NCBI GenBank assembly: GCA_965248925.1
Contig: CBDFLE010000005.1
Location: forward strand, 1,120,001 to 1,184,000
Direction: 5' to 3'
Source: Candidatus Multivoradales bacterium
Lineage (GTDB): Bacteria; Acidobacteriota; Thermoanaerobaculia; Multivoradales; J023
Length of the DNA stretch: 64,000 bases
Shown in pieces: positions 4,712-22,271 of this stretch (the stretch's first letter is position 1; each line of letters starts with the position of its first letter). The position numbers and the translations under genes were made by a program. The notes under the pieces were generated by a model, which saw only the letters and a program-made list of their open reading frames with translations, was not told where the DNA came from and did not search any database.

Positions 4712-4995
4712 CGTTCGACCTCCTCAGATAGGTCGCCCTGGCTCAGCTGCGCACGGGCGAAGTCGAGGAAGTGGGCCGAGTCCACCGGGCTCGACTTCGC
4801 GAAGTCCGAGGAGAAGAAAGTCGAGAAGCGGACAGGGCCGGACTGCGGCAAGACCACGACATCTATCGCCCGGACGTACAGAAACTCAGTCCGGGTTGAA
4901 AAAGGGGGATCGAGGGGGTGTAAGACCTCGCCGCGCCCCGTCTCGCCAAGCGGGCGGATCTGTTGCATGGTGATTCCTCAAAAGGAGGAACCGCT

Positions 4996-5370
4996 ATGGA
5001 ACAACGAATCGCGAGCTTTCGTCATCAGGTCGAGGTCTACTTTGGCTGCCGCCCAGGCCGCGGATGTCGGTATCCGGCTTCCCTTCGGGCAGAAGCCGTG
5101 GAGGTGGCTTTGGAGGCGCAGTCCAACGGCGATCGGTTGGGCCGGGTGGCCGCTGCTTTGGGAGTCGGTGTGGACACGCTCCGCCGCTGGATCGAGGCAG
5201 CGCCGCCGATGCCCATTCAGCTGCGGGCGGTCGAAGTCGTAGAGGCCGAAGAAGCAGCAACCATCAATCGAGGCCATCGAGAGGGCTTGGTCCTGGTGAC
5301 TGTCGCTGGCCACCGCGTGGTGGGGCTGGCTCTGGCCGACGTGGCATTGCTTCTGGAAGCGCTCGGATGA
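4996..5370 (+). CDS. tnpA: IS66 accessory protein TnpA (HTH)
   Basis: YPASLRAEAV...VAAALGVGVDTLRRW HTH; GGAGG RBS; ATGA overlap with tnpB. Confidence 0.85.
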   Translation: MEQRIASFRHQVEVYFGCRPGRGCRYPASLRAEAVEVALEAQSNGDRLGRVAAALGVGVDTLRRWIEAAPPMPIQLRAVEVVEAEEAATINRGHREGLVLVTVAGHRVVGLALADVALLLEALG

Positions 5371-5741
5371 TCGGCTCGACCCGCCGGGTCAGCGTCTACG
5401 CCTTCGGTGCGCCTGCCGACCTCCGCAAGGGGCTCGACGGTCTCTCGGGTCTGGTGACCGGCGAGCTTGACCAAGACCCTCTCTCAGGCGATCTGTTCCT
5501 ATTCGTCAATCGGGCGCAAACCCTCGCGAAGGTTCTGGTCTGGGACGGTACCGGGCTCTGTGTCTACAGCAAGCGGCTCGAGCAGGGGCGGTTTGCCTGT
5601 CTGTGGCGCGAACGGGAAGAGGACCGGCTGCGGCTGACTATGAGTGAGCTGACCTTGTTCTTGGAGGGCAGCAAGCTGATCGGAAAGATGAGGCTCTCGC
5701 CGCCCCTATTTGTGAGGGAAAAGGTTGCTGACGCAGCCTGA
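5367..5741 (+). CDS. tnpB: IS66 accessory protein TnpB
   Basis: PADLRKGLDGL...LFLFVNR...KVLVWDGTGLCVYSKRLEQGRF motif. Confidence 0.92.
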   Translation: MIGSTRRVSVYAFGAPADLRKGLDGLSGLVTGELDQDPLSGDLFLFVNRAQTLAKVLVWDGTGLCVYSKRLEQGRFACLWREREEDRLRLTMSELTLFLEGSKLIGKMRLSPPLFVREKVADAA

Positions 5742-5760
5742 ATTCTGCTCTATAATAGAC

Positions 5761-7033
5761 CACTGCTGTCCCGTTAACTTCGCAGAAAAATAGGCTCAAA
5801 CCTCCCTGGTCTTGATAGAATCAGTCATCGCTAAACGGCTGAATCAAAGGGAGATCTGAGCCTTGGCACATCATAGCACCGTCTTCGCCCAGCTACTGCA
5901 ACTGATTTCGAGACATGAATTCGAGGCCCTCGCAAAACGCCACCACGCCGGTCGCCAGTTCCGCACTGCGAGCCGCTGGTCGCAGCTGGTGGCTCTGATG
6001 ATGGCCCAGCTGTCCGGGCGTTCTAGCTTGCGCGACATCGTTGACAATCTACGAGCGCAGCGGCACAAGCTCTACCATCTCGGCTGCCGAGTCCTGTCGC
6101 GATCCAACTTGGCACGGATCAACGAAGAGAAGCCCTATCTCCTTTTTGAAGAGCTATTTGGGAGACTTCTGGGCCGTGCTCAAGCAGTGGCGCCCAAGCA
6201 TACGTTCCGGTTCAAGAACCGCTTGTTCTCGCTTGACGCCTCGGTGATAGACCTTTGTCTGTCGATATTCCCGTGGGCGAAGTTTCGTACGACCAAGGGA
6301 GCGATCAAGCTGCATGTGGGGTTGGATCACGGTGGCTACTTGCCTGCCTTCGTTGCGATCTCGGATGGAAAAACAGGTGACATCGCGGGCTGCAAGAGCC
6401 TGACGCTGCCACGAGGAAGCATCGTAGCTTGTGATCGTGGTTACAACAGCTACAGCTGGTTTCGTCAGCTGAGCGAGAAGGGTCTTTTCTTTGTGACCCG
6501 TCTGAAGCGCGGGGCCAAGTACCGCGTGACCGAACGTCGAAGAGTCAATCGTTCCAAGGGTTTGATGAGCGACCAAACGATCGAATGGACCGGTGTGAAG
6601 GCGTGTCGTGACTGCCCGATGCCTCTGCGGAGAGTAGGCTATCGCGACCCTGAGACCGGCAAGATCTACTATTTCTTGACGAACCTGTTCCGCCTGTCAC
6701 CTCAGACCATTGCCGATATCTACCACGAACGTTGGCAAATTGAACTCTTCTTCAAGTGGATCAAGCAGAATCTGAAGATCAAGACTTTCGTCGGCACCAG
6801 CCGCAACGCCGTGCTGACTCAGCTTTGGATCGCCATGTGCGTCTACCTATTGCTCGCTTTCATCAAGCACAAGCACCGTCTTTCCAGTAGTTTACGGGAG
6901 GCCTTGCGCCTCCTTCAATTGAACCTCTTTGAGCGCCGCGACCTCATGGCCCTCTTGAAACGAGAGCCGCCGCCGATCCCAGGACTAGACGAAAGACAAC
7001 TGGTAATGGTCGGAAGTTAACGGGACAGCAGTG
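5761..7033 (+). mobile_element. IS4-family insertion sequence, copy 1 (1273 bp)
   Basis: 21-bp IRs CACTGCTGTCCCGTTAACTTC / GAAGTTAACGGGACAGCAGTG; 9-bp TSD ATAATAGAC (5752-5760, 7034-7042). Confidence 0.95.
5863..7020 (+). CDS. IS4-family DDE transposase
   Basis: LDAS, DRGY and YHERWQIELFFKWIKQNL (YREK) motifs. Confidence 0.95.
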   Translation: MAHHSTVFAQLLQLISRHEFEALAKRHHAGRQFRTASRWSQLVALMMAQLSGRSSLRDIVDNLRAQRHKLYHLGCRVLSRSNLARINEEKPYLLFEELFGRLLGRAQAVAPKHTFRFKNRLFSLDASVIDLCLSIFPWAKFRTTKGAIKLHVGLDHGGYLPAFVAISDGKTGDIAGCKSLTLPRGSIVACDRGYNSYSWFRQLSEKGLFFVTRLKRGAKYRVTERRRVNRSKGLMSDQTIEWTGVKACRDCPMPLRRVGYRDPETGKIYYFLTNLFRLSPQTIADIYHERWQIELFFKWIKQNLKIKTFVGTSRNAVLTQLWIAMCVYLLLAFIKHKHRLSSSLREALRLLQLNLFERRDLMALLKREPPPIPGLDERQLVMVGS

Positions 7034-7044
7034 ATAATAGACGC

Positions 7045-8595
7045 ATGCTTCGGATCGAGAACGAACAGCGCCCCGACGTTCTGCGTCAAATTGCGCTGCT
7101 GCTCGATCGCGAGAATCGACACCTGCACGAGCGCATCAAGAATCTGATAGTTAGCAACGCACATCTTGCAGGGGCCGGCGCTGCTACCCTGCAACTTGAG
7201 CTTGAGCAACTGCAGGAGATTCTCGCTCAACGCGAGCGTAAGATCTTCGGCCCGTCCTCGGAGAAACGCCCCAGGACGCGGACCCCAGCGTCGGAGCGTA
7301 AGCCGCAGACCGGCCACGGGCCGACTCCGCAGCCCTTGCTGCCAGTGGTCGAGAAACTCCTCGAGCTACCCATTGCAGAGCAGGTTTGCCCGACCTGCGA
7401 CGGCTCCCTTCAGCCGATGGGTGATCAGACGGAAGATTCCGACGAGATCTCCGTAGTCCGGCGACACTTCATCATGGTCAAGCACCAGCGTCAGAAGTAT
7501 CGCTGTCGCTGCAACGCGGCAGTGGTCACGGCGCCAGCGCTGCCAAAGCTGATCCCTGGAGGCCGCTACGCTCCAGAGTTCGCGGTTGAGGTGGCGATCG
7601 GTAAATACCTTGATCATCTACCTCTTGAGCGCCAGAGCCGAAGCATGGCGCGGGAAGGGCTGAACGTCAGCTCGCAGACGCTGTGGGACCAGATCGAAGC
7701 TTTGGCCAGGGTGCTGACGCCGAGCTACCTGGCTCTGCATGACAAGGTGCTCATGGCTCCGGTGGTCCACGCCGACGAGACTCACTGGCGGCTGGTGACT
7801 CGTCAAGAAAATTCCAAGTGGTGGGTGTGGAGCGTGGCCAATCGGCAGGCGGTGTTCTATCGATTGTGCGGAACTCGCTCGGAAAAATCTGCCAGGTCGA
7901 TCCTCTCTGGTTATCAGGGCATCGTGGTGTGCGACGGATACTCGGCCTACAAGGCTCTGGCCAAGAGTGAGGCCAAGAGGGACGATCAGTCGGCATCCCG
8001 CGCCGGTCCTGGATTCACACTGGCCCACTGCTGGGCACACGCACGAAGAAAATTCGCCGACGCAGAGCACAACTACCCGAAACACTGCGGTCAAGCGCTG
8101 GACATGATCAGCGATCTTTTCAAAGTGGAGCGGAAGGTACCGGCTATCCAAGTTCCGGAGCCGCAAGAGCTTCTGGATCTGCGCCTGAAGCTGCGCGCCG
8201 AGCACTCCGGGCCCATTCTCAAAAAGCTGCAAGCTTGGGCTATGGAGACCAGACCCGTAGCCCTGCCGCGCAGCGGATTGGGCAAGGCAGTCAACTACCT
8301 GCTCGGCCATTGGAAAGGGCTAACGCGTTTTCTTGAAAACCCCCTAATTCCCCTCGACAACAACCTTGCCGAGCGGGAGCTGCGAGGCGTCGTCATCGGA
8401 CGCAAGAACCACTACGGGTCGCGCTCCAAGCGGGGAACCGAGGTCGCGGCGATCCTCTACAGCCTCACCGAGAGCGCCAAGCTTGCCGGCGATGAGCCCT
8501 ACGCCTACCTGCTCAAAGCAACGCGGGCGGCTCTCGAGAATCCCGGCACTGTCACCTTGCCGGCCAGCCCCGGCGATTCACCCCCACCAAACTGA
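7045..8595 (+). CDS. tnpC: IS66 transposase TnpC
   Basis: Leucine zipper, CPTC/CRC Zn ribbon, HADET, CDGY, CWAHARRKF, DNNLAERELR. Confidence 0.95.
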   Translation: MLRIENEQRPDVLRQIALLLDRENRHLHERIKNLIVSNAHLAGAGAATLQLELEQLQEILAQRERKIFGPSSEKRPRTRTPASERKPQTGHGPTPQPLLPVVEKLLELPIAEQVCPTCDGSLQPMGDQTEDSDEISVVRRHFIMVKHQRQKYRCRCNAAVVTAPALPKLIPGGRYAPEFAVEVAIGKYLDHLPLERQSRSMAREGLNVSSQTLWDQIEALARVLTPSYLALHDKVLMAPVVHADETHWRLVTRQENSKWWVWSVANRQAVFYRLCGTRSEKSARSILSGYQGIVVCDGYSAYKALAKSEAKRDDQSASRAGPGFTLAHCWAHARRKFADAEHNYPKHCGQALDMISDLFKVERKVPAIQVPEPQELLDLRLKLRAEHSGPILKKLQAWAMETRPVALPRSGLGKAVNYLLGHWKGLTRFLENPLIPLDNNLAERELRGVVIGRKNHYGSRSKRGTEVAAILYSLTESAKLAGDEPYAYLLKATRAALENPGTVTLPASPGDSPPPN

Positions 8596-8694
8596 TCTTC
8601 GCTGCTCGAATCTGAGGACCCTGTCAAGACGTGCCAGGGCGAGGTCTTACGAGGGGGTTGGGCTGCTGCCTCTTGCCTCGGTCTTGAATCCACC

Positions 8695-8880
8695 TAACTC
8701 CATGAGATGCCAGTGTTTATCCCTTGAGTACCGGCGACGTGTGAAGCTTACCACGAGCACCTCCACACGCGTCAAGGGGGGCTCATGGGGAAGCACTGGC
8801 CAATCCTCCCCCACGGTCTTCAACGGTGGGCCACAACGAAACCGGCTAGTGCAGAAGTTTGCTAGGTTCCCGGCGCATCG
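8695..8880 (-). repeat. Copy 1 of dispersed non-coding element (IHF-like site + leftward sigma70-like promoter)
   Basis: Aligns with 17348-17559 and 21990-22225; TAAACACTG...TTA 25-mer, TTGACG-N19-TAAGCT on minus strand, shared GAAACCGG..GTGCAGAAG block. Confidence 0.7.
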
Positions 8881-8893
8881 AAACGCGTCAAGC

Positions 8894-8993
8894 GCTCGGC
8901 TATCGGCGGAATCTGCCGATTCCGGTGGCACCTTAATTGGCTTGCTCGGCTATCGGCGGAATCTGCCGATTCCGGTGGCACCTTAATTGGCTT
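8894..8993. repeat. Perfect 50-bp tandem duplication with internal hairpin
   Basis: GCTCGGCTATCGGCGGAATCTGCCGATTCCGGTGGCACCTTAATTGGCTT x2; ATCGGC...GCCGAT stem. Confidence 0.95.
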
Positions 8994-9037
8994 GGCCGAA
9001 AGGCCACGGCTTGGTTCTCACTGTACGCCCCTGCCTC

Positions 9038-11185
9038 TCACCTATAGTCGAGTGCGCCATCGAAAACTCTTAAGTCGATGAATTCTAGGCCAGTATCATT
9101 GCTATCATAAATCTTGATATAGAGGTTGCCGTTGATCACATGGGTGATGGTGTCCGATGAAAAGACATGGAAGTCCTCGATGGCTATGCTCTTGAAAATA
9201 TCATCAACTACGGCCGAATAGAGATCGGCGGCCTTGCTCCTCTGTGTACGGTCGTCTGCAATTAGAGTATATCGGAACCCAAATCTACTTAGATGACCCT
9301 CAAGAAACTCAGCCTCAAAACCACTAGCGACTTCTATCCCTTCGACTCGAAATTGCTCCTTGCGACAGTATGTTTGGCCGCAGAGTGATATGGCTCCTTT
9401 GTCCAGGAGAGAGGCCATGTGCTCCTGATAGTCGTTCACGGACATGCCGAATTCAAGGTCTAGATGGATTTTGCTCTTGGCGACGGTCCTCGTTCTTCCT
9501 TGGTCGATTGCATGGCGAAATAGACGCTCATTGTCCTGAAACTGCACTCTTGATGAAACATCTACCGTGAAGTCATCTGGCCTGAGAGTCATAAAGAGAA
9601 CTTCCCCGTCAAGAGTTCCTTTCAGCCAGAACCTCTTGCCGTTATTCTTGAAGGGCCAGAAGCTCCTCTTGTTCTCATGAGGATAGGTTTTTATTATCGA
9701 ATATTCCCTGCCCTGTAAGTAGAGGAGAAACTCATCAAAAGACTCATGAGAAGTAGTTGAAAGTCTAATTTTTGTGTAATCCTCAAGGAGGGAAACGTCG
9801 AAGCGAAAAGAGCGACCTTCTACGCCCGAGAGCCAGACATTACCATTCGGCTTGATTGCAATGACACCATTCTGCTTTCTTACATCCCAGGAAAAGTCGT
9901 CTTCTGGGAACACCTCGTTCAGGCATCGCTCATCCTCACAATTCTTACCCTGCATCAATAGATCCAGGAGGTCATAATCGGAAACATTTGGGGGGTTCAA
10001 GGCCAAGCTCACGGAGTTGACGCGATATTCTGGACTTTCTAGCACCTCTCCGAGGTAGCGAGATTTCGACATGTAGATCATGTCTAGCTGAGCAAAAAAT
10101 ATGGTGTCGCTATCATGATCGAAGGACATCTTGAAGGTGGCATCGGCGTCAAGCTTGTATTGTGTCGGAAAGACGAACCGAGACAAGGTGCCATGAGTGG
10201 TATCCAGGATGTAGTAACTGATCCGGTTGTGTTCCAGTAGCGAATCGGCCAATTGTCGGCGCTTGATTCGAAGTATCAACTTGTCGCCCATGCATGCCAA
10301 TATGCTTGTTTCGGAGATGTCAAAGTCAGGGTCTTCGAACAAGTCAACTCTTGAGAAGTGAGCTTCGTCTCCGTTGGATTTCCACAGGAAAGGATTGCGC
10401 TTCATGGGGCTGGTGTGGTATGCCGTACCAAACATCTTACCATCGGCCACCTTGAAGACCTCGGAGAGCCTCAAGGTGTCTTCTGGTGTCGATGTCCCAC
10501 TTCTTAGTACGCTATCGTAGCGAAGGTAGTACGAGTTATTCAGGCTACTGCCCGATGGGGCATACCAATACTGCTCATTTTGATAGATCGGGGTCAAATG
10601 CTGTTTCGATTGAGCTACATCAGAATTGGAGGGGCGACGACTTGCGTCTTCAGGTGCCGGCTGTATCAGTGTCCAACTGGCGCCATTATCGAGACTGCGA
10701 TATAAATTACCACCAATGAACATCTGGATAGAACCGTCACCGCTAGTGATTTGAGTGAACTTTGCGCCATCTGAATACAATAGAGGGCTCGCCAGATTCT
10801 TTGCGGTCTTTGCCCAGCGCGCGAAGAAGAAATCCGGAACGTTGTCGAGCTTATCTCCTTTGATTAGCGCATTCTGTTCAGACATTGCCGGGGTCGAAAC
10901 CTCCTCCCAAGATAGGCCGCTATCTAGCGACCTGTACACTCGGAATGGTTTGCATCTAAAGGCTGGAAGAAGGCCGTCCGTACCGCAGTCAACATCTTCG
11001 TTGTCAAAGTACCCGATTGCGATGAGGGCTCCACTAGTTGCTCGATGTAGATTAAGGATATTTAGCGATATGGAGTCAGCGTTGCGGATTGTGCCTAGGT
11101 CGACCCAGAGAGAAGAGTCCTCTTTGACACAGCCAAGCACTAGCACCAGCAGTGTAAGAAGCACGGGGTGATGTAGTCGTTTCAT
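9038..11185 (-). CDS. Hypothetical lipoprotein with BNR/Asp-box (beta-propeller) motifs
   Basis: Lipobox LVLG-C; YRSLDSGLSW and YRSLDNGASW Asp-boxes; visibly lower GC than backbone. Confidence 0.75.
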   Translation of the reverse strand: MKRLHHPVLLTLLVLVLGCVKEDSSLWVDLGTIRNADSISLNILNLHRATSGALIAIGYFDNEDVDCGTDGLLPAFRCKPFRVYRSLDSGLSWEEVSTPAMSEQNALIKGDKLDNVPDFFFARWAKTAKNLASPLLYSDGAKFTQITSGDGSIQMFIGGNLYRSLDNGASWTLIQPAPEDASRRPSNSDVAQSKQHLTPIYQNEQYWYAPSGSSLNNSYYLRYDSVLRSGTSTPEDTLRLSEVFKVADGKMFGTAYHTSPMKRNPFLWKSNGDEAHFSRVDLFEDPDFDISETSILACMGDKLILRIKRRQLADSLLEHNRISYYILDTTHGTLSRFVFPTQYKLDADATFKMSFDHDSDTIFFAQLDMIYMSKSRYLGEVLESPEYRVNSVSLALNPPNVSDYDLLDLLMQGKNCEDERCLNEVFPEDDFSWDVRKQNGVIAIKPNGNVWLSGVEGRSFRFDVSLLEDYTKIRLSTTSHESFDEFLLYLQGREYSIIKTYPHENKRSFWPFKNNGKRFWLKGTLDGEVLFMTLRPDDFTVDVSSRVQFQDNERLFRHAIDQGRTRTVAKSKIHLDLEFGMSVNDYQEHMASLLDKGAISLCGQTYCRKEQFRVEGIEVASGFEAEFLEGHLSRFGFRYTLIADDRTQRSKAADLYSAVVDDIFKSIAIEDFHVFSSDTITHVINGNLYIKIYDSNDTGLEFIDLRVFDGALDYR

Positions 11186-11363
11186 GAGAGGTGAACCCTT
11201 TTCGTTGGACAGGCTATTTCCTTTGCTAAGGTGGACTCATAGTCCATCAGTTCAGGCTGCGGTATTTCCGGGTTTCTTGTGGATCCGATATTTGCGACCT
11301 CTGCGGACCTAGCCAGTCAAACTTCTCCCTAAAATCCTCTGTCTCCACCTCTTCAGAGGATAC

Positions 11364-11447
11364 ATCCGCCAAGCCTTGCTGGACGGTACCTACTCGCCGC
11401 AGCCTGTGCGGCGAGTAGAGGTCCTGAAGCCCCCGGGGCATGAGCGA
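11364..11447 (+). pseudogene. Group II intron reverse transcriptase fragment (RT0/RT1 region)
   Basis: Translates IRQALLDGTYSPQPVRRVEVLKPPGHER, matching the G-x-Y-x-P-x-PVRRV-x-IPK signature. Confidence 0.8.
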
Positions 11448-11511
11448 GATGCTGCGTGGGATTGTTGGTGTCTTGCCTCCGCTCTCCGAATCTTTCCCAA
11501 CAAACAAGCCA

Positions 11512-13119
11512 CTAGCCTCTCCAATCCTTGACGTAAAGAACATTAGTGTTATTCAACTGAATCACACTCTGTTTCCGCAACATCGCGGACGCCTCTTTTC
11601 CATACTTGTCAATCTCATCAATAGCGACGAAGGACTGTTTCTCAATCGATAGATAGAAACGAAAAAGGTTCGCGACGGAGTCATTCTCGACATTCTTAAA
11701 GAGAAGCGAGTCATGCGCAATGAATGGTAGAATCGTTGCCTGGAACACCGCCAAATCTAAGACGATCAGACTTGCGTATGCCGTGCCAGTCCCAGTATCT
11801 TCGAAAACCTCGTACGTATAACTATTCTCCTCGATTCCGATCTCAGGACTCTTTCGCTCAGGCCCAAAAATCAAGGTAACAATCCTGCGAAGCGTATCAT
11901 TCAATATGTTCTTGATAAGCTCGATCTCTTCGGCCTTCCTGGCAGAGAGGCTTTTCTTAAGTCCCTTGATATCTTCTCGAAGGCACTGGTTGTTCTCGAA
12001 ATGAAGATTCTCGTGTCTCGCTTCGCCTAGATCCACTGCTAGGTCATACACACGGTCTACTATGACTGTAGGCTGATCGATAGTCGATAATGTCTTGGCC
12101 ATCCGAGCTTCGATATTCGCGATCTCAGCATCGATTCGAGCCAAGTTTTCCTTCAGGTTTGCCTCAGATCCTCGAAGCTCTGTTTTCAACAGCTTCGCAA
12201 CGCCGCTATGGAACTCCTCGACTCTCGTCAAACGCCCCTTGTCAATTTCTGGAAAAAATCTGCTTAACGCAGCAAAGTGTCGACTCTTGATATGGCGATT
12301 GCCTGTGATATTCCCTTGAATTCGAGCCAATTTGCTTTCAAGATCCAGTTTAACAGAAAGCAGTTTATCCTTATGAAGCTTCAACTCTAATACTTCACGG
12401 TTGACTACTTCCGAGATATTAGTCGCGTACTTTGCCAGGTTAACTTTAATGTCATCGATTTCAGTCTCAATCGCAGCAATCCGACTTTCATTGGCTTTGG
12501 CTTTCCGCTTGTCGATTTTCGGAATAATCTGAGTCTTGAACGCGGCGTTCAGCGCCTTCCGCTCTTCTTCTCTAACTTTGAGGCTATTGGCAAGTTTCTT
12601 GATGGGTCCAAATCGATCAAATGTCTTAATCAAGTTGTCGACGCACTCTCGACCAGGCTTGACTTGCACCACATGAAGAGGTTTTTGCACGCTTAGGTTG
12701 TCTTTGCCCCACACCCTGAAGTACAAACCAACCAAAGACCGAAAACTTATTTCCTCAAGCTGGATTCCGTAGGCTGCCTTAAGAATGGCTGTGTATTCTT
12801 CAATAGGGATCGGCGTCGTTGGCTGATAATCTTCGCTGCACTTATATACCAAATCGGGCTGAAACGTCCCTCGCCGAAAGCGCATAAGTTCCCGGTTGAA
12901 CGTGAAGGAGAAGAAATAGTCGTGGTCCCCCAGCTCGGCGACCAGATCAATATTATGCTTTAGTAATGAATTGCCGCCAAAGGCGAAGTCGATGACCATC
13001 AGGAGGGTCGACTTGCCTATGGAGTTCGTACCGTTCTCATCTCCAAGCACTACATTCAGGCCAGGGCGAAAAGGGATCCGGTCGGTGCGAAATTTGTCGC
13101 AACGAACTTCAGTCAACAT
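11512..13119 (-). CDS. ABC-three-component/Lamassu SMC-like ATPase (LmuB-like, DUF2326)
   Basis: Walker A GDENGTNSIGKST, long coiled coil, C-terminal GTGTAYASLIVLDLA...FIAHDS. Confidence 0.85.
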   Translation of the reverse strand: MLTEVRCDKFRTDRIPFRPGLNVVLGDENGTNSIGKSTLLMVIDFAFGGNSLLKHNIDLVAELGDHDYFFSFTFNRELMRFRRGTFQPDLVYKCSEDYQPTTPIPIEEYTAILKAAYGIQLEEISFRSLVGLYFRVWGKDNLSVQKPLHVVQVKPGRECVDNLIKTFDRFGPIKKLANSLKVREEERKALNAAFKTQIIPKIDKRKAKANESRIAAIETEIDDIKVNLAKYATNISEVVNREVLELKLHKDKLLSVKLDLESKLARIQGNITGNRHIKSRHFAALSRFFPEIDKGRLTRVEEFHSGVAKLLKTELRGSEANLKENLARIDAEIANIEARMAKTLSTIDQPTVIVDRVYDLAVDLGEARHENLHFENNQCLREDIKGLKKSLSARKAEEIELIKNILNDTLRRIVTLIFGPERKSPEIGIEENSYTYEVFEDTGTGTAYASLIVLDLAVFQATILPFIAHDSLLFKNVENDSVANLFRFYLSIEKQSFVAIDEIDKYGKEASAMLRKQSVIQLNNTNVLYVKDWRG

Positions 13120-13333
13120 AGGAAATGATCCGGGTGTCGAAATCTATTTCGATACATCCCAAGAGGTAGAGCACATCGATCGCCAGGAGAAATTGATCAA
13201 CGCTTTCCAACTTCTTGGCGGTTTTATTGTACAGTTTTATAAGGTCGATTGAGCCCGGTCGCTGCTCAAGGATGAGACCTACAGCGCCTAAAGCAGAGTC
13301 CTTCAGCGCCACCATCTTGTTCGGTGTGATCAT
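13109..13333 (-). CDS. ABC-three-component middle component (LmuC-like)
   Basis: 74 aa, MITPNK...FLLAIDVLYLLGCI, overlapping both the effector and ATPase genes. Confidence 0.75.
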   Translation of the reverse strand: MITPNKMVALKDSALGAVGLILEQRPGSIDLIKLYNKTAKKLESVDQFLLAIDVLYLLGCIEIDFDTRIISYVD

Positions 13334-13587
13334 TCGAATACCTCGCAGTTTTGAACGAAGAATGACGTCACGATCTCGGCCGCTTCTAGGGTATCTGGCT
13401 CAGTTTTGATGTACAACCAGTCGACGATGTTCGAAAAGACCTCGTGCTGTGGTAATCCAAGACTCTTCTGTTTAAGATAATAAACTTTCACCTGTGTCGC
13501 GATTAGGTCGGACACTGCAGGGCTCAAGCGCTCCATCTCCAGGAACTTACTCCGGATATATTGATAATAATCAGCAACATTATACTT

Positions 13588-14860
13588 CACTGCTGTCCCG
13601 TTAACTTCGCAGAAAAATAGGCTCAAACCTCCCTGGTCTTGATAGAATCAGTCATCGCTAAACGGCTGAATCAAAGGGAGATCTGAGCCTTGGCACATCA
13701 TAGCACCGTCTTCGCCCAGCTACTGCAACTGATTTCGAGACATGAATTCGAGGCCCTCGCAAAACGCCACCACGCCGGTCGCCAGTTCCGCACTGCGAGC
13801 CGCTGGTCGCAGCTGGTGGCTCTGATGATGGCCCAGCTGTCCGGGCGTTCTAGCTTGCGCGACATCGTTGACAATCTACGAGCGCAGCGGCACAAGCTCT
13901 ACCATCTCGGCTGCCGAGTCCTGTCGCGATCTAACTTGGCACGGATCAACGAAGAGAAGCCCTATCTCCTTTTTGAAGAGCTATTTGGGAGACTTCTGGG
14001 GCATGCTCAGGCAGTGGCGCCCAAGCATACGTTCCGGTTCAAGAACCGCTTGTTCTCGCTTGACGCCTCGGTGATAGACCTCTGTCTGTCGATATTCCCA
14101 TGGGCGAAGTTTCGTACGACCAAGGGAGCGATCAAGCTGCATGTGGGGTTGGATCACGGTGGCTACTTGCCTGCCTTCGTTGCGATCTCGGATGGAAAAA
14201 CAGGTGACATCGCGGGCTGCAAGAGCCTGACGCTGCCACGAGGAAGCATCGTAGCTTGTGATCGTGGTTACAACAGCTACAGCTGGTTTCGTCAGCTGAG
14301 CGAGAAGGGTCTTTTCTTTGTGACCCGTCTGAAGCGCGGGGCCAAGTACCGCGTGACCGAACGTCGAAGAGTCAATCGTTCCAAGGGTTTGATGAGCGAC
14401 CAAACGATCGAATGGACCGGTGTGAAGGCGTGTCGTGACTGCCCGATGCCTCTGCGGAGAGTAGGCTATCGCGACCCTGAGACCGGCAAGATCTACTATT
14501 TCTTGACGAACCTGTTCCGCCTGTCACCTCAGACCATTGCCGATATCTACCACGAACGTTGGCAAATTGAACTCTTCTTCAAGTGGATCAAGCAGAATCT
14601 GAAGATCAAGACTTTCGTCGGCACCAGCCGCAACGCCGTGCTGACTCAGCTTTGGATCGCCATGTGCGTCTACCTATTGCTCGCTTTCATCAAGCACAAG
14701 CACCGTCTTTCCAGTAGTTTACGGGAGGCCTTGCGCCTCCTTCAATTGAACCTCTTTGAGCGCCGCGACCTCATGGCCCTCTTGAAACGAGAGCCGCCGC
14801 CGATCCCAGGACTAGACGAAAGACAACTGGTAATCGTCGGAAGTTAACGGGACAGCAGTG
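13588..14860 (+). mobile_element. IS4-family insertion sequence, copy 2
   Basis: Same IRs and length as copy 1; 9-bp TSD ATTATACTT (13579-13587, 14861-14869). Confidence 0.95.
13690..14847 (+). CDS. IS4-family DDE transposase
   Basis: Differs from copy 1 at two residues (GRAQ/GHAQ, LVMVGS/LVIVGS). Confidence 0.95.
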   Translation: MAHHSTVFAQLLQLISRHEFEALAKRHHAGRQFRTASRWSQLVALMMAQLSGRSSLRDIVDNLRAQRHKLYHLGCRVLSRSNLARINEEKPYLLFEELFGRLLGHAQAVAPKHTFRFKNRLFSLDASVIDLCLSIFPWAKFRTTKGAIKLHVGLDHGGYLPAFVAISDGKTGDIAGCKSLTLPRGSIVACDRGYNSYSWFRQLSEKGLFFVTRLKRGAKYRVTERRRVNRSKGLMSDQTIEWTGVKACRDCPMPLRRVGYRDPETGKIYYFLTNLFRLSPQTIADIYHERWQIELFFKWIKQNLKIKTFVGTSRNAVLTQLWIAMCVYLLLAFIKHKHRLSSSLREALRLLQLNLFERRDLMALLKREPPPIPGLDERQLVIVGS

Positions 14861-15381
14861 ATTATACTTGATCTTTCTTTGAGTTGGAATCGGCATCGAT
14901 TCGTCCAATTTTGCTTCTAGACTTCTTGGGTCATACTCAAGATCTGGCTCATCGGGATAGTCCGCGACTGTGTAGAGCCCCTCAATAACAACCCGGATGT
15001 CTCTCTCGATCTTGTAGGAAGATTGAAGTGTTTGCTGCTCCTCCTGTCGAAGCAGGGATCGTTTTTTCCGCACGAGCGCCCTGTACTCGTCAGCGATTCT
15101 TGGCTTGTCAAATTTCTTATGGCATGTCGCACACAATGGAATCAAGTTGTTTGGATGATTCACGTCAGCGTGCAGCTTTACCTCATTTCTCAGCTCATAC
15201 AGTTCGCTTTTACTTGGGTTGACGGGATAGATGTGGGCTAGGTCGTACATCTTATATGACCTTAAGTTCTTGACGTAGAAGAGATCACGTCCACACAGCG
15301 GGCAAATGCCTCTAGTTTGCGTGGTTAATGCCAACTCTTCGGCAGGGCTGTATTTCCGGCGATCATTTGTCATAGGATTTC

Positions 15382-15783
15382 CGAGGTTGGATGAACTACT
15401 TCGGCATTTCGGACTATTACCGACCTGTCGCAGAAATCGACAAGTGGATCCGAAGACTCATCTGAATGTGTTACTGGAAACAGTGGCGCTGGGTGCGCAC
15501 GAAGGTCCGTCATCTGCTCGCTTTGGGAACGAGTCGTCGTCAAGCAATTTTCACCGCGCTCAGTCGCAAGAGCTACTGGGACTTGTCGAAAACCTTGGCG
15601 ACACAGACCGGAATGACGAACAAATTGCTTCAAAGTCAGGGGCTGATCAGTTTCCGCGATCTGTGGATGAAAGCCCATGGCTATGCTTGAAACGATCGTG
15701 TGCTCCATCATTGTGAATCGCCTAGTGCGGACCCGTATGCTAGGTGGCGTGTTGGCCGGGGTTAGATCCCCCGGCTACCCGAT
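15382..15783 (+). mobile_element. 3' remnant of group IIC intron (maturase X domain, domains V and VI)
   Basis: RGWMNYFG...WIRRLI*MCYWKQW...GLISFRDLW (in-frame TGA 15463); DV GAATCGCCTAGTGCGGACCCGTATGCTAGGTGG with CGC triad; DVI ending ACCCGAT. Confidence 0.9.
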
Positions 15784-17120
15784 TAGCCGTCTGCACCGGT
15801 TTGCCTAACTGCATTCCGGATGGGTGCCGGAATTGCGTTGTCGTATAGTCGGTCATCTCCGACTGACATGCCTTGTTCTAGGATGAAGTCTGCCAGAATC
15901 ATCGCCTCATCGTCGTCCACTTCGCCAGACTCTAGGATTCCAAGCAGGGAACTCTGCGCCCCCCATTGATCTGCGCCGTACGCCACTGACCACATTCCAA
16001 CAAGGCAACCGCCTCGACTCTCGGTATCGACGACAGCGTGGAACAGTCGGCCTAAGAAGCTAGCAAATCCATTCATTGCGCTGAAGGGCCATCCCACAGT
16101 TCCGAGGCACTTCTCCATTTCATCCAAGAAGACACGCACGAACCTCGCAGACTCTGCTCCTACTGCATCGCAATAGGGCGCGAGCCGATCATCGGAAGAA
16201 AAGAAGTCAATTACTGGCTCTATGTAACCGCTGTAGACGTGATCTCTATACTCGGGCTCTGCGAGTGCTCTGTGCACCTGATCCCAGTGAGGTGCCGATC
16301 CATTGTCGGCTAACAGCACCTTTAGCGCGTCATTGCGAGGCGGCGTATCGGTTCGTAATGCCTCGATTCGATCAAAGTGCTCGGCAAAGTGAGCCGCAGA
16401 TGGATAGCGCTCAGTAGCGCTTGGCCGAGTAGCCCTTTGAATTACAGGAGAGTACGAACAACGATGGTGGTGATCTGGGTCTCTGCCGGTCATGACAAAG
16501 TTGAGCAGCTTCCCTAGCGAGTAGATGTCACTCTGAACCGTAGCACTTTTGAGGCTGTCCCGCTGCTCGGGCGCAACGTAGTACGCATGGCCGTAGTTGT
16601 CGACACTGCTCCGCGTGCGGTTCGACTGAGCACTGAGGTCCCTGCCCAGGCCAAAATCGCACACGACCACAGAATTGCAGTCGCGAGTGTCCAGGACTAA
16701 TGCATTGGATGGACTGATATCCCTATGCAGGATGCCGAGCTCGTGCGCCGACTGGATTGCACTCAGAATTCGGCGGAACATTACGACGCGCTCCGGTTCC
16801 TCCAGTGCAGTGTTGTTCCTCTTAATGAACCGATGAAGATTCATAGCTGCCACAGGCATGGCGTACCAGATGCCAGGCCCAACCAAGTTTCCCGAGTGGC
16901 CTAGGAGATCAACTACGCCCGCCACGCCCCTAAGACGTTCAAGCAGTGTGATTTCCCGCTTGAGCCGTGCTTGATAGACAGGATTGTTGTTGACTGAACT
17001 CCTTAAGCTCTTCACAGCAATGCCGTCGCCAGTCTTACGGTGACTGAATCTCTTTACGAGCGCGAATGCACCCTCGCCCATGACAGCGGTAGTTTCGTAA
17101 TCGCGAAGCTCAATACTCAT
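15783..17120 (-). CDS. Soluble Ser/Thr protein kinase with uncharacterised C-terminal domain; integron-cassette-like
   Basis: GEGAFALV, AVK, HRDISPSNAL, DFGLG, YVAPEQ, DIYSLG; flanked by GTTAGCC and GGCTA(A). Confidence 0.9.
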   Translation of the reverse strand: MSIELRDYETTAVMGEGAFALVKRFSHRKTGDGIAVKSLRSSVNNNPVYQARLKREITLLERLRGVAGVVDLLGHSGNLVGPGIWYAMPVAAMNLHRFIKRNNTALEEPERVVMFRRILSAIQSAHELGILHRDISPSNALVLDTRDCNSVVVCDFGLGRDLSAQSNRTRSSVDNYGHAYYVAPEQRDSLKSATVQSDIYSLGKLLNFVMTGRDPDHHHRCSYSPVIQRATRPSATERYPSAAHFAEHFDRIEALRTDTPPRNDALKVLLADNGSAPHWDQVHRALAEPEYRDHVYSGYIEPVIDFFSSDDRLAPYCDAVGAESARFVRVFLDEMEKCLGTVGWPFSAMNGFASFLGRLFHAVVDTESRGGCLVGMWSVAYGADQWGAQSSLLGILESGEVDDDEAMILADFILEQGMSVGDDRLYDNAIPAPIRNAVRQTGADG

Positions 17121-17347
17121 TGCGAATCCGGCTAACAATAAAGGTTCTATCTGAACTCCAAGCCAAGATCTCCCATCGTGCGGACGCGCCTCCCCGAGTT
17201 CAGATGGAAGCGAGTTGTACGAAGCCGCCGCCTGGCACGGACGTTGCGTTTAGGGGTTTGTATCCCTCAGCCGGGGACGAGCCCCGAGCCATCGTGGCAG
17301 TCGAAGGCAGGTGAGATCGCGGCATAAGTAGGGGGGGATTAGAGCGC

Positions 17348-17559
17348 CTCAGAGGTCGAAAAATTCCGCCGATTTCTTCCCCGCACACGCTCTGTAAGTG
17401 CTTGACCGGTCAGTGTTTAATCCCGTCGTGCCCATAATGGAGACAGCTTACCATGCGGGGGCACTGCGATGTCAAGGGCACTGTGGGGGCAGCACTCTGC
17501 CCCGCTGCCCCGTGCTTCTCAACGGCTGACCGCACGAAACCGGTTAGTGCAGAAGGTTG
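17348..17559 (-). repeat. Copy 2 of dispersed non-coding element (truncated by IS21)
   Basis: 25-mer at 17395-17419, -10 at 17445-17450, -35 at 17470-17475; clear identity to 21990-22200. Confidence 0.8.
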
Positions 17560-17710
17560 TGTCAGTGACCGCCCATATGGAGCCAAAGCGGGATCGCCGT
17601 AATGGCGCCAGTAGAAGATCGCCGTAATGGAGCTAGTAGCTGCTCTGTTCGAGGATCTCGGGCCTCTCCCGGGGATACCTTACTGCCAGTCGAAATGGCA
17701 GGAGGTGTCC

Positions 17711-19243
17711 GTGGGGAATCGGAGGTTCGAGATGTACGAGTACCGTCATGTGCTGGTCCGAATGCGGGCTGGCGACTCAGATAGAGAATTGGCTCGTGCG
17801 GGCCTGATGGGGCGTCGCAAGTCTGGTGAATTTCGTCGTTTGGTGACGGAATTGGGCTGGCTGAAGCCGTCGCGGCCGTTGCCCGAGGTGGCGACGTTGG
17901 CGGCGCAAGCGGTCCCGAAACGACCGAAACAGTCGTCGACATCGTTGGTAGAGCCACACGCTGAGATGGTTCGTCAGTGGGCGTCCCAGGGCGTTGACGG
18001 GACGACAATCCACCAGGCGCTGGTGCGCAAGTTCGATTTCCCAGGCAGCTACTCGTCGGTGCGGCGCTATCTGCGCCGGCTGGGCAGGTCGCAGCCTCGG
18101 CGCACGGTGATCCTGGACTTTGCACCCGGCGAGGCAGCGCAGGTGGATTTCGGCTCGGGGCCGCGGCTGGTCGAGGGCGGCAGTGAGATCCGCACGTGGT
18201 TCTTCGTGATGACGCTGTGCTGGAGTCGGCACCAGTAGGCGGAGCTGGTTCTCGACCAGAAGGTGGCGACGTGGCTGGCCTGCCATCGCCGAGCCTTCGA
18301 GTTCTTCGGCGGGGTGCCCCTGCGGGTGACCATCGACAACGCCAAATGTGCGATCACGCGAGCCTGCTGGCGAGATCCGGAGGTGCAACGATCCTACGCC
18401 GAGCTCGCCGAAGGCTACGGCTTCAAGATCGACCCGTGCCCACCTCGGGATCCCCAGAAGAAGGGGCGAGTGGAGTCGGGTATCAAGTACGTGAAGCGGA
18501 ACTTCCTGCCTCTGCGGGAGTTCCGAAACCTGAGCGATGGCAATGGTCAGCTCGAAGCCTGGGTGCTCGGCCGGGCAGGCAATCGGATCCACGGCTCGAC
18601 CCGTGAGCGGCCCCTGACGCGCTTTGCCGAGACCGAGCGTGATCTGCTCCAGACCTTGCCGGCTGCCGCCCCGGAGCCTTCGACCTGGGCCCGTGCGATC
18701 GTGCCTGCAGATCACCATGTGCGCCTTGAGCATGGCCGCTACTCAGTGCCCTACACACTGATCGGTGAGCGGTTGTGGCTGCGGGCAACACCGACCGCGG
18801 TTCAGGTCTACGAGGAGTACACGATGGTGGCGGCGCACCCGCGCATGAGACCTGGAAAGCGCTCGACGGTCGATGACCACCTACCGCCGGAAGCTCTGGC
18901 GCACAAACGGCGGACACCGGATTGGTGCCGCTCGCAGGCCGAGTCGATTGGCCCTTCCTGCCAGGGGCTGATCGACGCCCTATTCGCCGACCGCGTGCTG
19001 GACAACCTGCGGGCTGCGCAAGGTGTCATCCGGCTCGCAGAGCGCTACGGAGAGGACCGATTGGAGGCCGCTTGCGAGCGGGCGCTGGCCTTCGAGAATC
19101 CGCGCTATCGGTGCGTCAAGACGATCCTCGAGCGGGGGCTCGACCAGCACTGCGTCGAGCCCCCGGAGTCCGTCCAGCTTGCCGCGAGTTACACCGGCTC
19201 GGGCCGCTTCTGCCGTGACACCCGAAATCTGTTGGCGCACTGA
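17711..19243 (+). pseudogene. istA: IS21 transposase IstA with in-frame TAG (18236-18238)
   Basis: PGEAAQVDFG, DNAK, KGRVES motifs in one frame across HQ*AE. Confidence 0.88.
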
Positions 19244-19256
19244 TGTGGAGGCCCCA

Positions 19257-20060
19257 ATGAATCCTGTACCCGAGATCGCCCCGCTGCTCAAGCGACTCCG
19301 TCTGTCGGGAATCCTCGAGAGCCTCGAGGAGCGCAATCGTCAGGCGATCACCAAGAAGCTCCCGTACACCGACTTCCTCACCCTGCTCATCCAAGACGAA
19401 GTAGCGCGGCGCGACCAGAAGAAATTCGACCTGCGCCTGAGGCGTGCGGGTTTCCAGTCGAACAAGACGATCGAGAGCTTCGACTTCGACTTCAATCCGA
19501 GCGTCCACCGCGAGCTGCTCCAAGAGCTTGCGGCCTGCCGTTTCCTCGACGAGCACGTCTGCGTGCTGATCGCCGGACCGTGCGGGACCGGCAAGAGCCA
19601 CATCGCCCAGGCGCTGGGTCACTGCGCCGTACGCGCTGGCCACGACGTGCTCTTCACCACCACGAGCAAGCTCCTCGGCTCGCTCAACGCGGCGCGCGCC
19701 ACGGGCACCTTCGAGCGTCGCTTCCAGGCCGTCGCTCGCGTCGACCTGCTGATCCTCGACGACTTCGGCCTCAAGCCCTTACGGGCACCGCAGGACGAGG
19801 ATCTCCACGATCTGGTCGCAGAGCGTTACGAGCGCACCTCGACCGTCGTCACCAGCAACCTCGATTTCACCGAGTGGGGCGACGCCTTCACTAACCGCCT
19901 GCTAGGCGCCGCCACACTCGACCGTCTGCGAGACGCCGCATACCGCGTCGTTCTCGACGGCGAGAGCTACCGAAAACCCAGGCCCATGCCGAAAGCCAGA
20001 AAGGTCGCCGAGGCCGCAAGCAAGGACCAGAAGACGAAGAAGGGAGGCCACACGGCTTGA
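19257..20060 (+). CDS. istB: IS21 helper ATPase IstB
   Basis: GPCGTGKSH Walker A, LLILDDFG Walker B, TSN, ATLDRL. Confidence 0.95.
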   Translation: MNPVPEIAPLLKRLRLSGILESLEERNRQAITKKLPYTDFLTLLIQDEVARRDQKKFDLRLRRAGFQSNKTIESFDFDFNPSVHRELLQELAACRFLDEHVCVLIAGPCGTGKSHIAQALGHCAVRAGHDVLFTTTSKLLGSLNAARATGTFERRFQAVARVDLLILDDFGLKPLRAPQDEDLHDLVAERYERTSTVVTSNLDFTEWGDAFTNRLLGAATLDRLRDAAYRVVLDGESYRKPRPMPKARKVAEAASKDQKTKKGGHTA

Positions 20061-20346
20061 GCATCCGCGAGCCGGACCGGATGGGCTATGGAAGCTGCCA
20101 CTCCTACGGAAATCGCTACGCGATTACCGCATCCGTTTGGAAAACGCTGCGCGTTTCCCACAGCTCCCACAGCCCCGACGACGGTTTGGTTGCGATGGAT
20201 CAGGATAAGGAAGAAGAGGAAAGGCAGAGCTTGCCAACTGCCTCCTCACACGATAGACACAAACCGCCTGAGATCCTCGAACGAGCACTTCTGGGTGGCT
20301 CCATTACGCCGATCATGGGTGGCTCCATTAGGGCGGTCAGTGACAG

Positions 20347-20655
20347 CTATAGGCCAGCGAACTCTTCAAGCCAAAAGGCGGAGCCCAGCTTGGCGTTAGT
20401 CGCGTCAAGAAGGCCCACTTCGGGGTGGGTGACAGAGCCAAGATTCTCGCGCTCGGGCTCTCCATTGGCCAGCATCGGGCAAGAGATCAACGTTCCGTCT
20501 GGTGCGATGGCGACAAAACAGCCGTGGTCTTTCAGCGGTTGGAGCTGCACGCAGTTATTGCACGGGTCCAAGCCGGGACGACTTGCTGGCGGATAGTAGC
20601 TCTTGGAATAGCTGTGGTGGCAGGACGGGCATTCAAAGCCTTTGTCGTTGCTCAT
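20347..20655 (-). CDS. Small Cys-rich hypothetical protein (putative Zn finger)
   Basis: CPSC and CNNC pairs; GGAG RBS; directly downstream of the integrase. Confidence 0.55.
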   Translation of the reverse strand: MSNDKGFECPSCHHSYSKSYYPPASRPGLDPCNNCVQLQPLKDHGCFVAIAPDGTLISCPMLANGEPERENLGSVTHPEVGLLDATNAKLGSAFWLEEFAGL

Positions 20656-20710
20656 TTTGGATAGCTCCTAGTAGGGTGAGATTTTAATTCTTGGCTTGGG
20701 ATCTGGCAAA

Positions 20711-20734
20711 GGACGCTCGCATGAGCGGGCGTCC
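20711..20734 (-). terminator. Hairpin downstream of integrase
   Basis: GGACGCTCGC-ATGA-GCGGGCGTCC followed by TTT on the minus strand. Confidence 0.5.
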
Positions 20735-20742
20735 GGCATCTT

Positions 20743-21801
20743 CTAGGCTGCAAGGAAGTTCGCAGTCATGCGAGCGACTACGCTGGCGGTATGGCCGTCT
20801 GTCAGGTGGGCGTAGCGCTTGACCATGGCCAGCGTCTTGTGGCCCATAGCCTCGGCGAGTTCGGCCAACGTCGCGCCGCTCATCGCGAGGTAGCTGGCAA
20901 ATGTGTGGCGAAGATCATGGAACCGGAAATTTTTGAGGCCAGCTGCCTCACAAGTCCGCTGCCATTCGCCCTGGGGGAAGGACGTTGAGCCGGTACGGCT
21001 GGGAAAGACGAGATCGGTTCCGAGGCGTCGGGCGGTCTTCCACTGTGACAGTACCTCTTCGGCTAGCCCGCTGATGGTCAGTGAGCGGCGCTCGCCGTTC
21101 TTGGTGTGGTGGATGAGTGCCACTCCGCGATTAAAATCCACATCCCTCCATTTGAGGTTCAACAGCTCGCCGCGCCGTGCTCCGGTGCAAAGGGCCATCG
21201 CCACCAGCGGATAGAGACGGGGCTCGGTGCTGTCCTTACAGGCGGCAAGTAGCCGGCGCTTTTCGTCTTCGTCGAGGAAGCGAGCACGGCCACGTCCTTG
21301 AGCGGGTTTGACGACTCTCAGACAGGGGTTGTCGTCCATCCAGAACCATTCCTTGACACCAGCGCTGAACGCTCCGCTCAAGATGGTGAGGTAGCGATGC
21401 ACGGTACCCGCCGCTAGTTGCTTGCCAGAGATCCCCTTGCCGCTGGTCAGGCCGTCTCTTGCCTCGGCGATGATGGCGGGGGTGACCTGGCTGAGCCGTG
21501 TATTTTCTCCCAGCGCCTGGCACCACCACCGAAGATTACGGGCGGTGTCCTTGGCTCGTGCCAGCCGGGGGACTTTCACTTCGATGTAGCGATCGATAAG
21601 ATCGCCCACGGTGTGCTGTTCGGCTTCGGCTTCCGGCTGATAGCGGCGTTGCCGTATCGCCTCAGTCGTACTATCGCCCCATCGTTGGGCTTCGCGCCGC
21701 GTGGAAAAAGTCTCTGAAGCCCGAGGATGCCCCTTCAAGAAAATCTGTGCCCGATACCGGATCTTGCCCTTCGCCGTCGTACGCTTTTCGATGTGTGCCA
21801 T
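20743..21801 (-). CDS. Tyrosine recombinase / phage-type integrase
   Basis: TGARRGE, TKNG, FHDLRHT, MGH...KRYAHL catalytic residues; N-terminal arm-binding-like domain; GGAGG RBS. Confidence 0.95.
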   Translation of the reverse strand: MAHIEKRTTAKGKIRYRAQIFLKGHPRASETFSTRREAQRWGDSTTEAIRQRRYQPEAEAEQHTVGDLIDRYIEVKVPRLARAKDTARNLRWWCQALGENTRLSQVTPAIIAEARDGLTSGKGISGKQLAAGTVHRYLTILSGAFSAGVKEWFWMDDNPCLRVVKPAQGRGRARFLDEDEKRRLLAACKDSTEPRLYPLVAMALCTGARRGELLNLKWRDVDFNRGVALIHHTKNGERRSLTISGLAEEVLSQWKTARRLGTDLVFPSRTGSTSFPQGEWQRTCEAAGLKNFRFHDLRHTFASYLAMSGATLAELAEAMGHKTLAMVKRYAHLTDGHTASVVARMTANFLAA

Positions 21802-21905
21802 GAGTTCCTCCAAACAGGTCGTCCCCGTGGGACGGATTTCTGTGGGGTACTCAAGGGGAAGCACTGGCCAACAACGCCCCACTGCATACAAAACGTCGCG
21901 AGACG

Positions 21906-21955
21906 TAAGTTATTGCATTTGCAGTGGTTAAGCATGGTGGAGCGTTGTCGAGTAT
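21906..21955 (-). other. Putative att remnant: tRNA/tmRNA-like 3' end (CTCCACCA) next to IHF-like site
   Basis: Minus strand ACTCGACAACGCTCCACCA then TAACCACTGCAAATGCAATAACTTA, ~105-150 bp upstream of integrase start. Confidence 0.45.
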
Positions 21956-21989
21956 TGGGTTATCTCACTTTGAAAAGGAGAGAATCACC

Positions 21990-22225
21990 GGGTCTCAGAG
22001 CCCAAAAATCCCGTCGATTTCTTCCAAGCGCACACTCTGTAAGTGCTGGACCAGTCAGTGTTTAATCCCGTCGTACCCATGATGAGAGTAGCTTGCCACT
22101 TCGCGTCTTCTGGGTGTCAAGGGGCACTGGCGGCGCAGCACTCTGCCCTGTTGCCCCATGGTTCTCAACGGCGGGCCACACGAAACCGGTTGATGCAGAA
22201 GTCTGCCAGCTTCCGGCGCATGTCG
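21990..22225 (-). repeat. Copy 3 of dispersed non-coding element
   Basis: 25-mer at 22040-22064, -10 at 22090-22095, -35 at 22115-22120. Confidence 0.8.
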
Positions 22226-22271
22226 GCAGCGTGGACCGTATGTCCAGGTTTGTTAGGATGTCCAACATGGG

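Follow-up and report, generated by a model that had tools for sequence, protein, structure and literature searches.

In T4-type phages, promoter-early stem-loop (PeSL) cassettes, each combining a stem-loop of G and C runs with a sigma-70-like promoter, are located before variable genes (PMC2839356), and these cassettes mediate modular shuffling (Arbiol et al. 2010, PMC2839356; Comeau et al. 2014, PMC4122927). Promoter activity, terminator activity and mini-circles are demonstrated for PeSLs. Here, a short non-coding element is described that is present in three copies in a 64,000-nucleotide stretch of the genome of Candidatus Multivoradales bacterium (assembly GCA_965248925.1, contig CBDFLE010000005.1, positions 1,120,001 to 1,184,000 of the forward strand; this whole stretch is referred to as the window). 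Of the systems compared, PeSL cassettes are those that the element appears to most resemble, as judged by its anatomy and context. Both are composites of a stem-loop (G runs, then C runs) and a sigma-70-like promoter sequence, both are intergenic, precede variable, non-essential genes and occur in many similar copies in plastic regions, and the flanks of both assort independently, as they would if the copies served for crossing over. However, the element is found in a bacterial chromosome rather than a phage, is approximately 200-240 bp in length and contains a conserved leader of approximately 110 nt; its spacer is 19 nt, its -10 box is weak, and it has no AT-rich upstream tract. In addition, PeSL activity has been demonstrated, whereas that of the element is a prediction and no joints between its copies are present in the contigs of four DNA runs.

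A second described class, putative mobile promoters, is defined by an identity of 80% or more along 50 nt or more, within -150 to -50 (Matus-Garcia, Nijveen and van Passel 2012; PMC3575422). The element falls under this definition, with copies 2 and 3 of the window being 83-85% identical and located before a kinase gene and an integrase gene, respectively, and with copies in relatives preceding Gabija genes, Shedu genes, an SbcCD-like gene pair and others, which are non-paralogous. As in that class, homologous non-coding DNA lies upstream of non-homologous genes, between genera and in two families, with no Rfam match. The class is operational, however, and the element adds to it a defined anatomy, clustering in islands, co-orientation and a defence-gene context. 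Correia/NEMIS, ERIC and REP/BIME sequences are short non-coding repeats in which promoters, hairpins and an IHF-type site may occur. They are named as intergenic repeats in the literature on mobile promoters (PMC3575422). The element is likewise a short non-coding intergenic repeat with promoter-like boxes, a hairpin and an IHF-like core, but it has neither terminal inverted repeats nor a genome-wide spread, and its hairpin is not a separate abundant repeat. Integron attC sites are conserved in structure, as imperfect palindromes that extend over the entire site and vary widely in sequence, and lie 3′ of their cargo. Like an integron array, the element forms co-oriented repeats that punctuate unrelated genes, often of defence or toxin-antitoxin systems; in contrast to one, it is linked to neither IntI nor any tyrosine recombinase, is conserved in sequence, lies 5′ of the cargo and carries promoter-like boxes.

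The three copies were described in an earlier note on this DNA as non-coding and as sharing a fixed arrangement on the minus strand; all three are present, their limits have been refined (Table 1), and the arrangement is confirmed. Read on the minus strand, each copy consists of a -35-like hexamer, 19 nt, a TGG with a TAnnnT-type hexamer, 25 nt and the 25-mer, with both spacings exact in all three copies. The observation that the spacers diverge in sequence while their lengths remain constant holds to the nucleotide, although this constancy is partly expected from recent common descent. Copies 2 and 3 reach the identity given above in gap-free alignments of 95 and 80 nt (repeat finder, families D1-D6), copy 1 is more distant from both (62-72% identity by repeat finder), and the mean column identity of the three-copy alignment is 76%. 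A 17-mer reported earlier is indeed identical at 8787-8803 and 21855-21871 (repeat finder, family D1). Due to the nhmmer E-values of the window copies (3e-65 to 9e-76 in the 7.98-Mb genome) and the dozens of related copies in other genomes, the three copies are regarded as homologous rather than alike by chance.

Table 1 Coordinates of the element copies, adjoining genes and insertion sequence (IS) elements. Positions refer to the window, or to the named locus (L) of a relative
Feature	Position	Strand	Details
Copy 1, main part	8651-8870	-	Diverged subfamily; -35-like 8770-8775, -10-like 8745-8750, 25-mer 8695-8719, hairpin 8776-8812
Copy 1, detached left-end hairpin	~4890-4919	-	Cut off from the main part by IS66; basis: sequence and 8-bp target duplication
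Copy 2	17318-17559	-	Right end cut by IS21; -35-like 17470-17475, -10-like 17445-17450, 25-mer 17395-17419, hairpin 17476-17511
Copy 3	21964-22230	-	Core 21964-22160; -35-like 22115-22120, -10-like 22090-22095, 25-mer 22040-22064, hairpin 22121-22157
Left-extension module (earlier "fourth copy")	21845-21963	-	Solo hairpin 21845-21885; 25-mer-like stretch 21906-21930
Tyrosine recombinase, 352 amino acids	20743-21801	-	Not an integron integrase
Ser/Thr protein kinase, 451 amino acids	15783-17138	-	Stk2 / PD-T4-6-like PADLOC matches; 187 nt downstream of copy 2 in the minus reading
IS66-family element (TnpB, TnpC)	4920-8650	+	Inside copy 1; carries a nested IS4-like element at ~5761-7033; basis: Pfam
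IS21-family element (split istA, then istB)	17560-20345	+	Multi-repeat ends, abuts copy 2; basis: Pfam, repeats
~250-nt extension in relatives	L040:14373-14620, L041:8787-9038, L043:14177-14417, also L033, L036		No Rfam or tRNA match

The same arrangement is retained throughout the family. Among 35 distinct full copies, conservation reaches at least 80% in the box regions but not in the spacer between them. The family as a whole retains the boxes, the distance between them and the TGG; the 19-nt spacer can take almost any sequence, yet its length is altered in only 2 of 24 aligned copies. Conserved blocks follow one another at fixed distances, namely the hairpin block, the two boxes, a stretch after the -10 box, the 25-mer and two small terminal hairpins. 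Only the main hairpin of approximately 37 nt is palindromic, and its fifth pair, otherwise C-G, is G-C in the diverged subfamily, a paired change; the remaining ~160 nt are conserved in sequence, including what appears to be an IHF-like core within the 25-mer. This pattern of conservation fits a stretch of DNA that would be bound by protein and that contains one real hairpin.

A whole-genome profile search (7.98 Mb) returned four full copies, one partial copy and one solo hairpin upstream of the integrase gene. The source genome thus carries five copies, the three of the earlier note, all of which are real, and two that it did not include, both located on contig C6, where the full copy has a PIN toxin-antitoxin pair on one side and a Transposase_29 gene on the other, and the second is partial. 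A BLAST search detected the element in 5 of 61 relatives, own genome counted. A sequence-only covariance model was then built from 24 copies and used for searches of family, order and phylum, bringing the genomes searched to roughly 390 in all. The element was found in six of 24 genomes of the same family, with 5, 19, 27, 13, 2 and 3 matches; the counts of 13-27 belong to three genomes of a sister genus, and the three matches in genome G012 are weak. In the order sample it was present in 5 of 151 genomes, one of which belongs to another family and has a strong match (E 3e-36), while in the phylum sample of 151 genomes it was present in the own genome only. All matches point the same way on 14 of the 15 contigs that have at least two matches within 60 kb. 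Literature on intergenic repeats or mobile elements in Acidobacteria, on Solibacter usitatus and on defence-island promoters, surveyed at the level of listings, yielded nothing on the element. The family is so far undescribed, but of a known kind; it is lineage-specific, being known from a small number of soil Acidobacteriota, and its distribution is narrow and patchy.

The genes next to the copies are variable. In 20 loci of relatives (~258 kb, 37 element matches), 189 open reading frames (ORFs) of at least 100 amino acids were compared, together with 74 ORFs in smaller, overlapping loci, and no conserved neighbour gene was found among them. As in the window, where the earlier note saw each copy point into a different cargo block, copies in relatives adjoin unrelated genes, many of which belong to defence systems. 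Neighbours include Gabija, Shedu, CBASS (SMODS and SAVED), TIR proteins and ABC-3C/Lamassu-like genes, as well as STAND/NACHT ATPases, caspase/CHAT proteins, a Mrr-kinase fusion and VMAP/Trypco genes; toxin-antitoxin genes, histidine and Ser/Thr kinases and many unknowns are also represented. The copy from the other family adjoins DruA and a MORC-type ATPase. Directly downstream of copies, PADLOC matches were obtained for GajA/GajB, SduA, LmuB-like proteins, PDC-S31 and Stk2/PD-T4-6-like kinases.

The nearest ORF on the left, which is downstream in the minus reading, is co-directional with the element for 23 of 33 copies and convergent for 10, a lean rather than a proper statistical test as the copies are related. 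Copy 1 is counted as convergent only owing to the IS66 element now present there. The nearest ORF on the right is co-directional in 18 cases and divergent in 13, so that a plus-strand reading would leave only 13 of 31 co-directional.

Comparison of the flanks showed that homology between copies ends at differing points and reaches past the core on one side only. Left flanks are similar in 15 pairs of copies, of which 13 differ in the right flank, one is not comparable and one is a tandem pair; right flanks are similar in 24 pairs, 23 of which differ in the left flank. In the window subfamily, the right extension corresponds to the 3′ end of a zf-HC2 (anti-sigma-like) gene, a remnant of which reaches to ~22230 in copy 3, and an intact form of this gene adjoins one copy in another genus. 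A non-coding sequence of ~250 nt forms one of the left extensions. The SbcCD-like pair has the element upstream in one genome, orthologues in three others have no element within ~8 kb, and the synteny breaks at the element upstream of this pair, with homology stopping at the gene start. Taken together, the mosaic flanks, the synteny break and the extensions point to probable spread and reshuffling by recombination with ragged ends. The intact zf-HC2 gene (L039:11446-12273, minus strand) encodes 275 amino acids with two zf-HC2 anti-sigma-like motifs, and its last ~30 codons survive in the window copies.

We favour the interpretation, held with about even confidence, that the element, spread by recombination and read on the minus strand, joins a hairpin resembling a terminator to a non-canonical promoter and a conserved leader. 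On this interpretation it would be a non-coding, intergenic module that acts mainly as DNA. The GC-rich hairpin, in which a G run pairs with a C run, would most likely stop or insulate transcription coming from the upstream gene. Directly after it, the -35-like TTGACA, the 19-nt spacer and the TGG with the TAnnnT -10-like box would form an extended -10 promoter, probably in need of a helper protein, and the conserved leader of ~110 nt, which includes the 25-mer with its IHF-like core and ends in the two small hairpins, would follow. The module stands ahead of unrelated operons, many of them anti-phage, and, rather than being moved by a transposase or integrase, would be copied with ragged ends through recombination or gene conversion. 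As the copies are alike, they could double as crossover points at which neighbouring gene modules are reshuffled.

Several observations weigh against this interpretation. A standard sigma-70 scan called no promoter in any copy (6 sites overall, compared with a shuffle mean of 7.0 +/- 2.9), and the 19-nt spacer, which is the reason that the scan misses the element, lies outside the usual 16-18 nt. No T run follows the hairpin, and the leader is better conserved than the spacer, which a plain promoter does not explain. The rule used for gene direction, the longest non-overlapping ORFs of at least 100 amino acids, is crude, and the copies to which it was applied are not independent; the ten copies facing a convergent ORF and a distance from element to next ORF that ranges from -22 to 1610 nt also count here. 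Finally, only ~7-8 of ~20 downstream operons have PADLOC matches, among which the kinase matches may be generic. The portable promoter proposed in the earlier note is plausible in view of the conserved boxes, spacing and TGG and the lean in direction towards downstream genes, but is not a site called by the standard scan. If the element is a promoter, it is of the extended -10 or the activator-dependent type; in a by-eye comparison with consensus motifs, neither sigma-54 nor extracytoplasmic function (ECF)-type promoters gave a good fit.

Defence islands pile up unrelated anti-phage systems, and how newcomers are expressed and exchanged is poorly understood. If the favoured interpretation is true, the shared unit of hairpin, promoter and leader would provide them with a common switch and a common crossover point. 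A bolder extension, rather unlikely at present, is that the family is a bacterial-chromosome counterpart of PeSLs, in which one lineage-specific protein would bind the hairpin and leader blocks of all copies, dozens of unrelated operons for defence and signalling would be induced together as one regulon, and the shared sequence would allow entire operons to be swapped between islands and passed between families.

The copies could instead be pure recombination junctions, that is, leftovers and substrates of exchange between defence-island modules that play no part in expression. The mosaic flanks, the clustering and co-orientation of the copies, the position of the element at the synteny break upstream of the SbcCD-like pair, with three orthologues lacking it, and the frequent IS insertions would all be consistent with such seams. 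However, the spacer sequence has drifted without loss of the boxes or of the distance between them, and there is a direction bias towards downstream genes. No joints between element copies were found in the contigs of four DNA runs from one sample, where only IS-related joints are present and contigs break at repeats, a result that is weak because contigs drop rare forms. We regard this explanation as improbable.

A cis-acting RNA leader or small RNA gene, in which a transcript of ~110-140 nt, possibly with a translated frame of 31 codons, would sense a signal or attenuate the operon, is given the same low expectation. In its favour, the part that would be transcribed is the best-conserved part of the element, the two closing small hairpins show some paired changes, and one subfamily has a conserved non-coding extension of ~250 nt downstream. 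In addition, 19 of 24 copies share an ATG at one alignment position, and in 11 of 24 the frame that it opens has exactly 31 codons. On the other hand, the consensus RNA fold is weak (RNAalifold -3.6 kcal/mol, 11 pairs, one compensated) and the leaders fold no better than shuffled sequences, with z near zero (minus strand +0.77, -0.07, -2.14, -0.17 and -0.33; plus strand +0.72, -0.67 and -0.23). An all-against-all covariation scan of 35 distinct copies gave a subfamily signal and no stacked helices, and no relevant Rfam match was obtained for the window (gathering threshold) or for the copies and the extended subfamily (E-value threshold). The 31-codon frame has position entropies of 0.57/0.66/0.53 and thus no codon-position bias, and its ratio of synonymous to non-synonymous changes (149:301) is equal to the ratios of the two alternative frames (182:346 and 155:326); a small protein was rejected for this lack of codon bias.

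The ~250-nt extension itself is an additional conserved non-coding stretch located downstream of the element in the sister-genus subfamily, with none in the source genome. Coding was considered for it and rejected, as the ORFs over the extension are not conserved as proteins.

It is quite doubtful that the element is a decaying non-autonomous mobile element of the MITE (miniature inverted-repeat transposable element) kind with incidental promoter-like boxes. As such an element would be, it is dispersed and patchily distributed, with a strong match in another family and both tandem and partial copies; but the ends of three copies have no terminal inverted repeats in common, no common target duplication was noticed in the aligned flanks, in which no systematic search was made, and the lengths of the ends vary. 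The copies are also few and clustered rather than scattered. A MITE scattered genome-wide, which the earlier note had named as a finding that would overturn its proposal, was rejected on account of the five clustered copies in 7.98 Mb, as was a REP-like element. Similarly, a profile of the hairpin only gave six credible matches in the genome, five of them inside copies, and the hairpin is therefore not a separate abundant repeat.

The integrase gene beside copy 3 had suggested that the element serves as the recombination arm of a non-IntI integrase in an integron-like system. Integron-integrase models match this protein far under their cut-offs (TIGR02249, 44.1 bits compared with 265; PRK15417, 30.5 compared with 435), as does every NCBIfam model that matches it. 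Integrase homologues are present in 21 of 24 genomes of the family, element-free genomes included, and an association of the element with this integrase clade was not found, the closest homologues (55-68% identity) being located on contigs with no element match. None of the 189 flanking ORFs, and none of the 74 in the smaller loci, is a tyrosine recombinase, and the proposed link is not supported. The supposed fourth 25-mer at 21906 exists as a 25-mer-like stretch, but belongs to a left-extension module that is not collinear with the element and so is no true fourth copy. The same module is the left extension of two copies in another genus, where no integrase is present, and also precedes, without any core element, the two closest homologues of the integrase in another genus. 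The integrase is read as a bystander that landed next to, or was joined to, copy 3. Insertion of cargo at element sites by the neighbouring tyrosine recombinase is almost certainly not the explanation: co-oriented repeats do divide variable cargo and one window copy does adjoin an integrase, but no flanking ORF is a tyrosine recombinase, the integron-integrase score is far too low, the closest homologues and the elements are on different contigs with homologues also in element-free genomes, and the element, unlike attC, is upstream of the cargo and conserved in sequence. Membership of an integron (attC array) was likewise rejected, as there is no IntI and a sequence-conserved element lies 5′ of a co-directional gene in 23 of 33 copies. 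For annotation, the lesson is that this arrangement is no integron and that its integrase is read as a bystander.

IS elements interrupt two of the window copies. The IS66 element has inverted repeats at 4920-4948 and 8622-8650 and is flanked by an 8-bp target duplication (4912-4919 and 8651-8658), and a small hairpin directly to its left resembles the left end of the other copies; based on the duplication and this hairpin, copy 1 is a single element split by IS66. Copies of IS66 without the nested IS were confirmed in the contigs of the four DNA runs. The likeness of copy 2 to copy 3 stops at 17559, where the end repeats of IS21 start, and no target duplication was seen for this IS21 element at 17560-20345. 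IS hits on the element are unusually frequent, with IS66, IS21, IS110, IS200 and IS481-like elements located in or at copies; in addition to the window (4920-8650 and 17560-20345), struck copies are found in loci L014, L046, L047 and L033, the last with an IS21 inserted mid-copy (L033:12596-15452) and an overlap of 8 positions between the two halves.

Further genes and repeats were noted around the copies. Immediately right of copy 1 are two exact tandem copies of a 50-bp unit (8894-8993), followed by a gene for a 715-amino acid protein (9038-11185, minus strand) that has no family match. An ABC-3C / Lamassu-like set at 11512-15373 comprises a DUF2326 ATPase with weak LmuB matches, a CTD11 fragment and an HNH_2 nuclease; the IS4-like element, present here in a second copy (~13587-14861), interrupts the set. 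Directly behind the integrase gene, a 102-amino acid cysteine-rich ORF (20347-20655, minus strand) has a good ribosome-binding site and no family match; it may be truncated, since its stop codon abuts the IS21 end. No tRNA or transfer-messenger RNA (tmRNA) was found in the window or in five loci, and an Acido-Lenti-1 RNA (Rfam RF01687, 49 bits, above the gathering score) is present in the locus of a relative (L049:3927-3972). Elsewhere in the window, a Septu-type pair (32898-36472) consists of a PtuA-like ATPase of 878 amino acids followed by a PtuB-like protein of 322 amino acids (PADLOC E 1e-133 and 1e-70, respectively), and a 3052-amino acid protein with ~20 Calx-beta repeats and an autotransporter beta-domain is encoded at 40008-49166.

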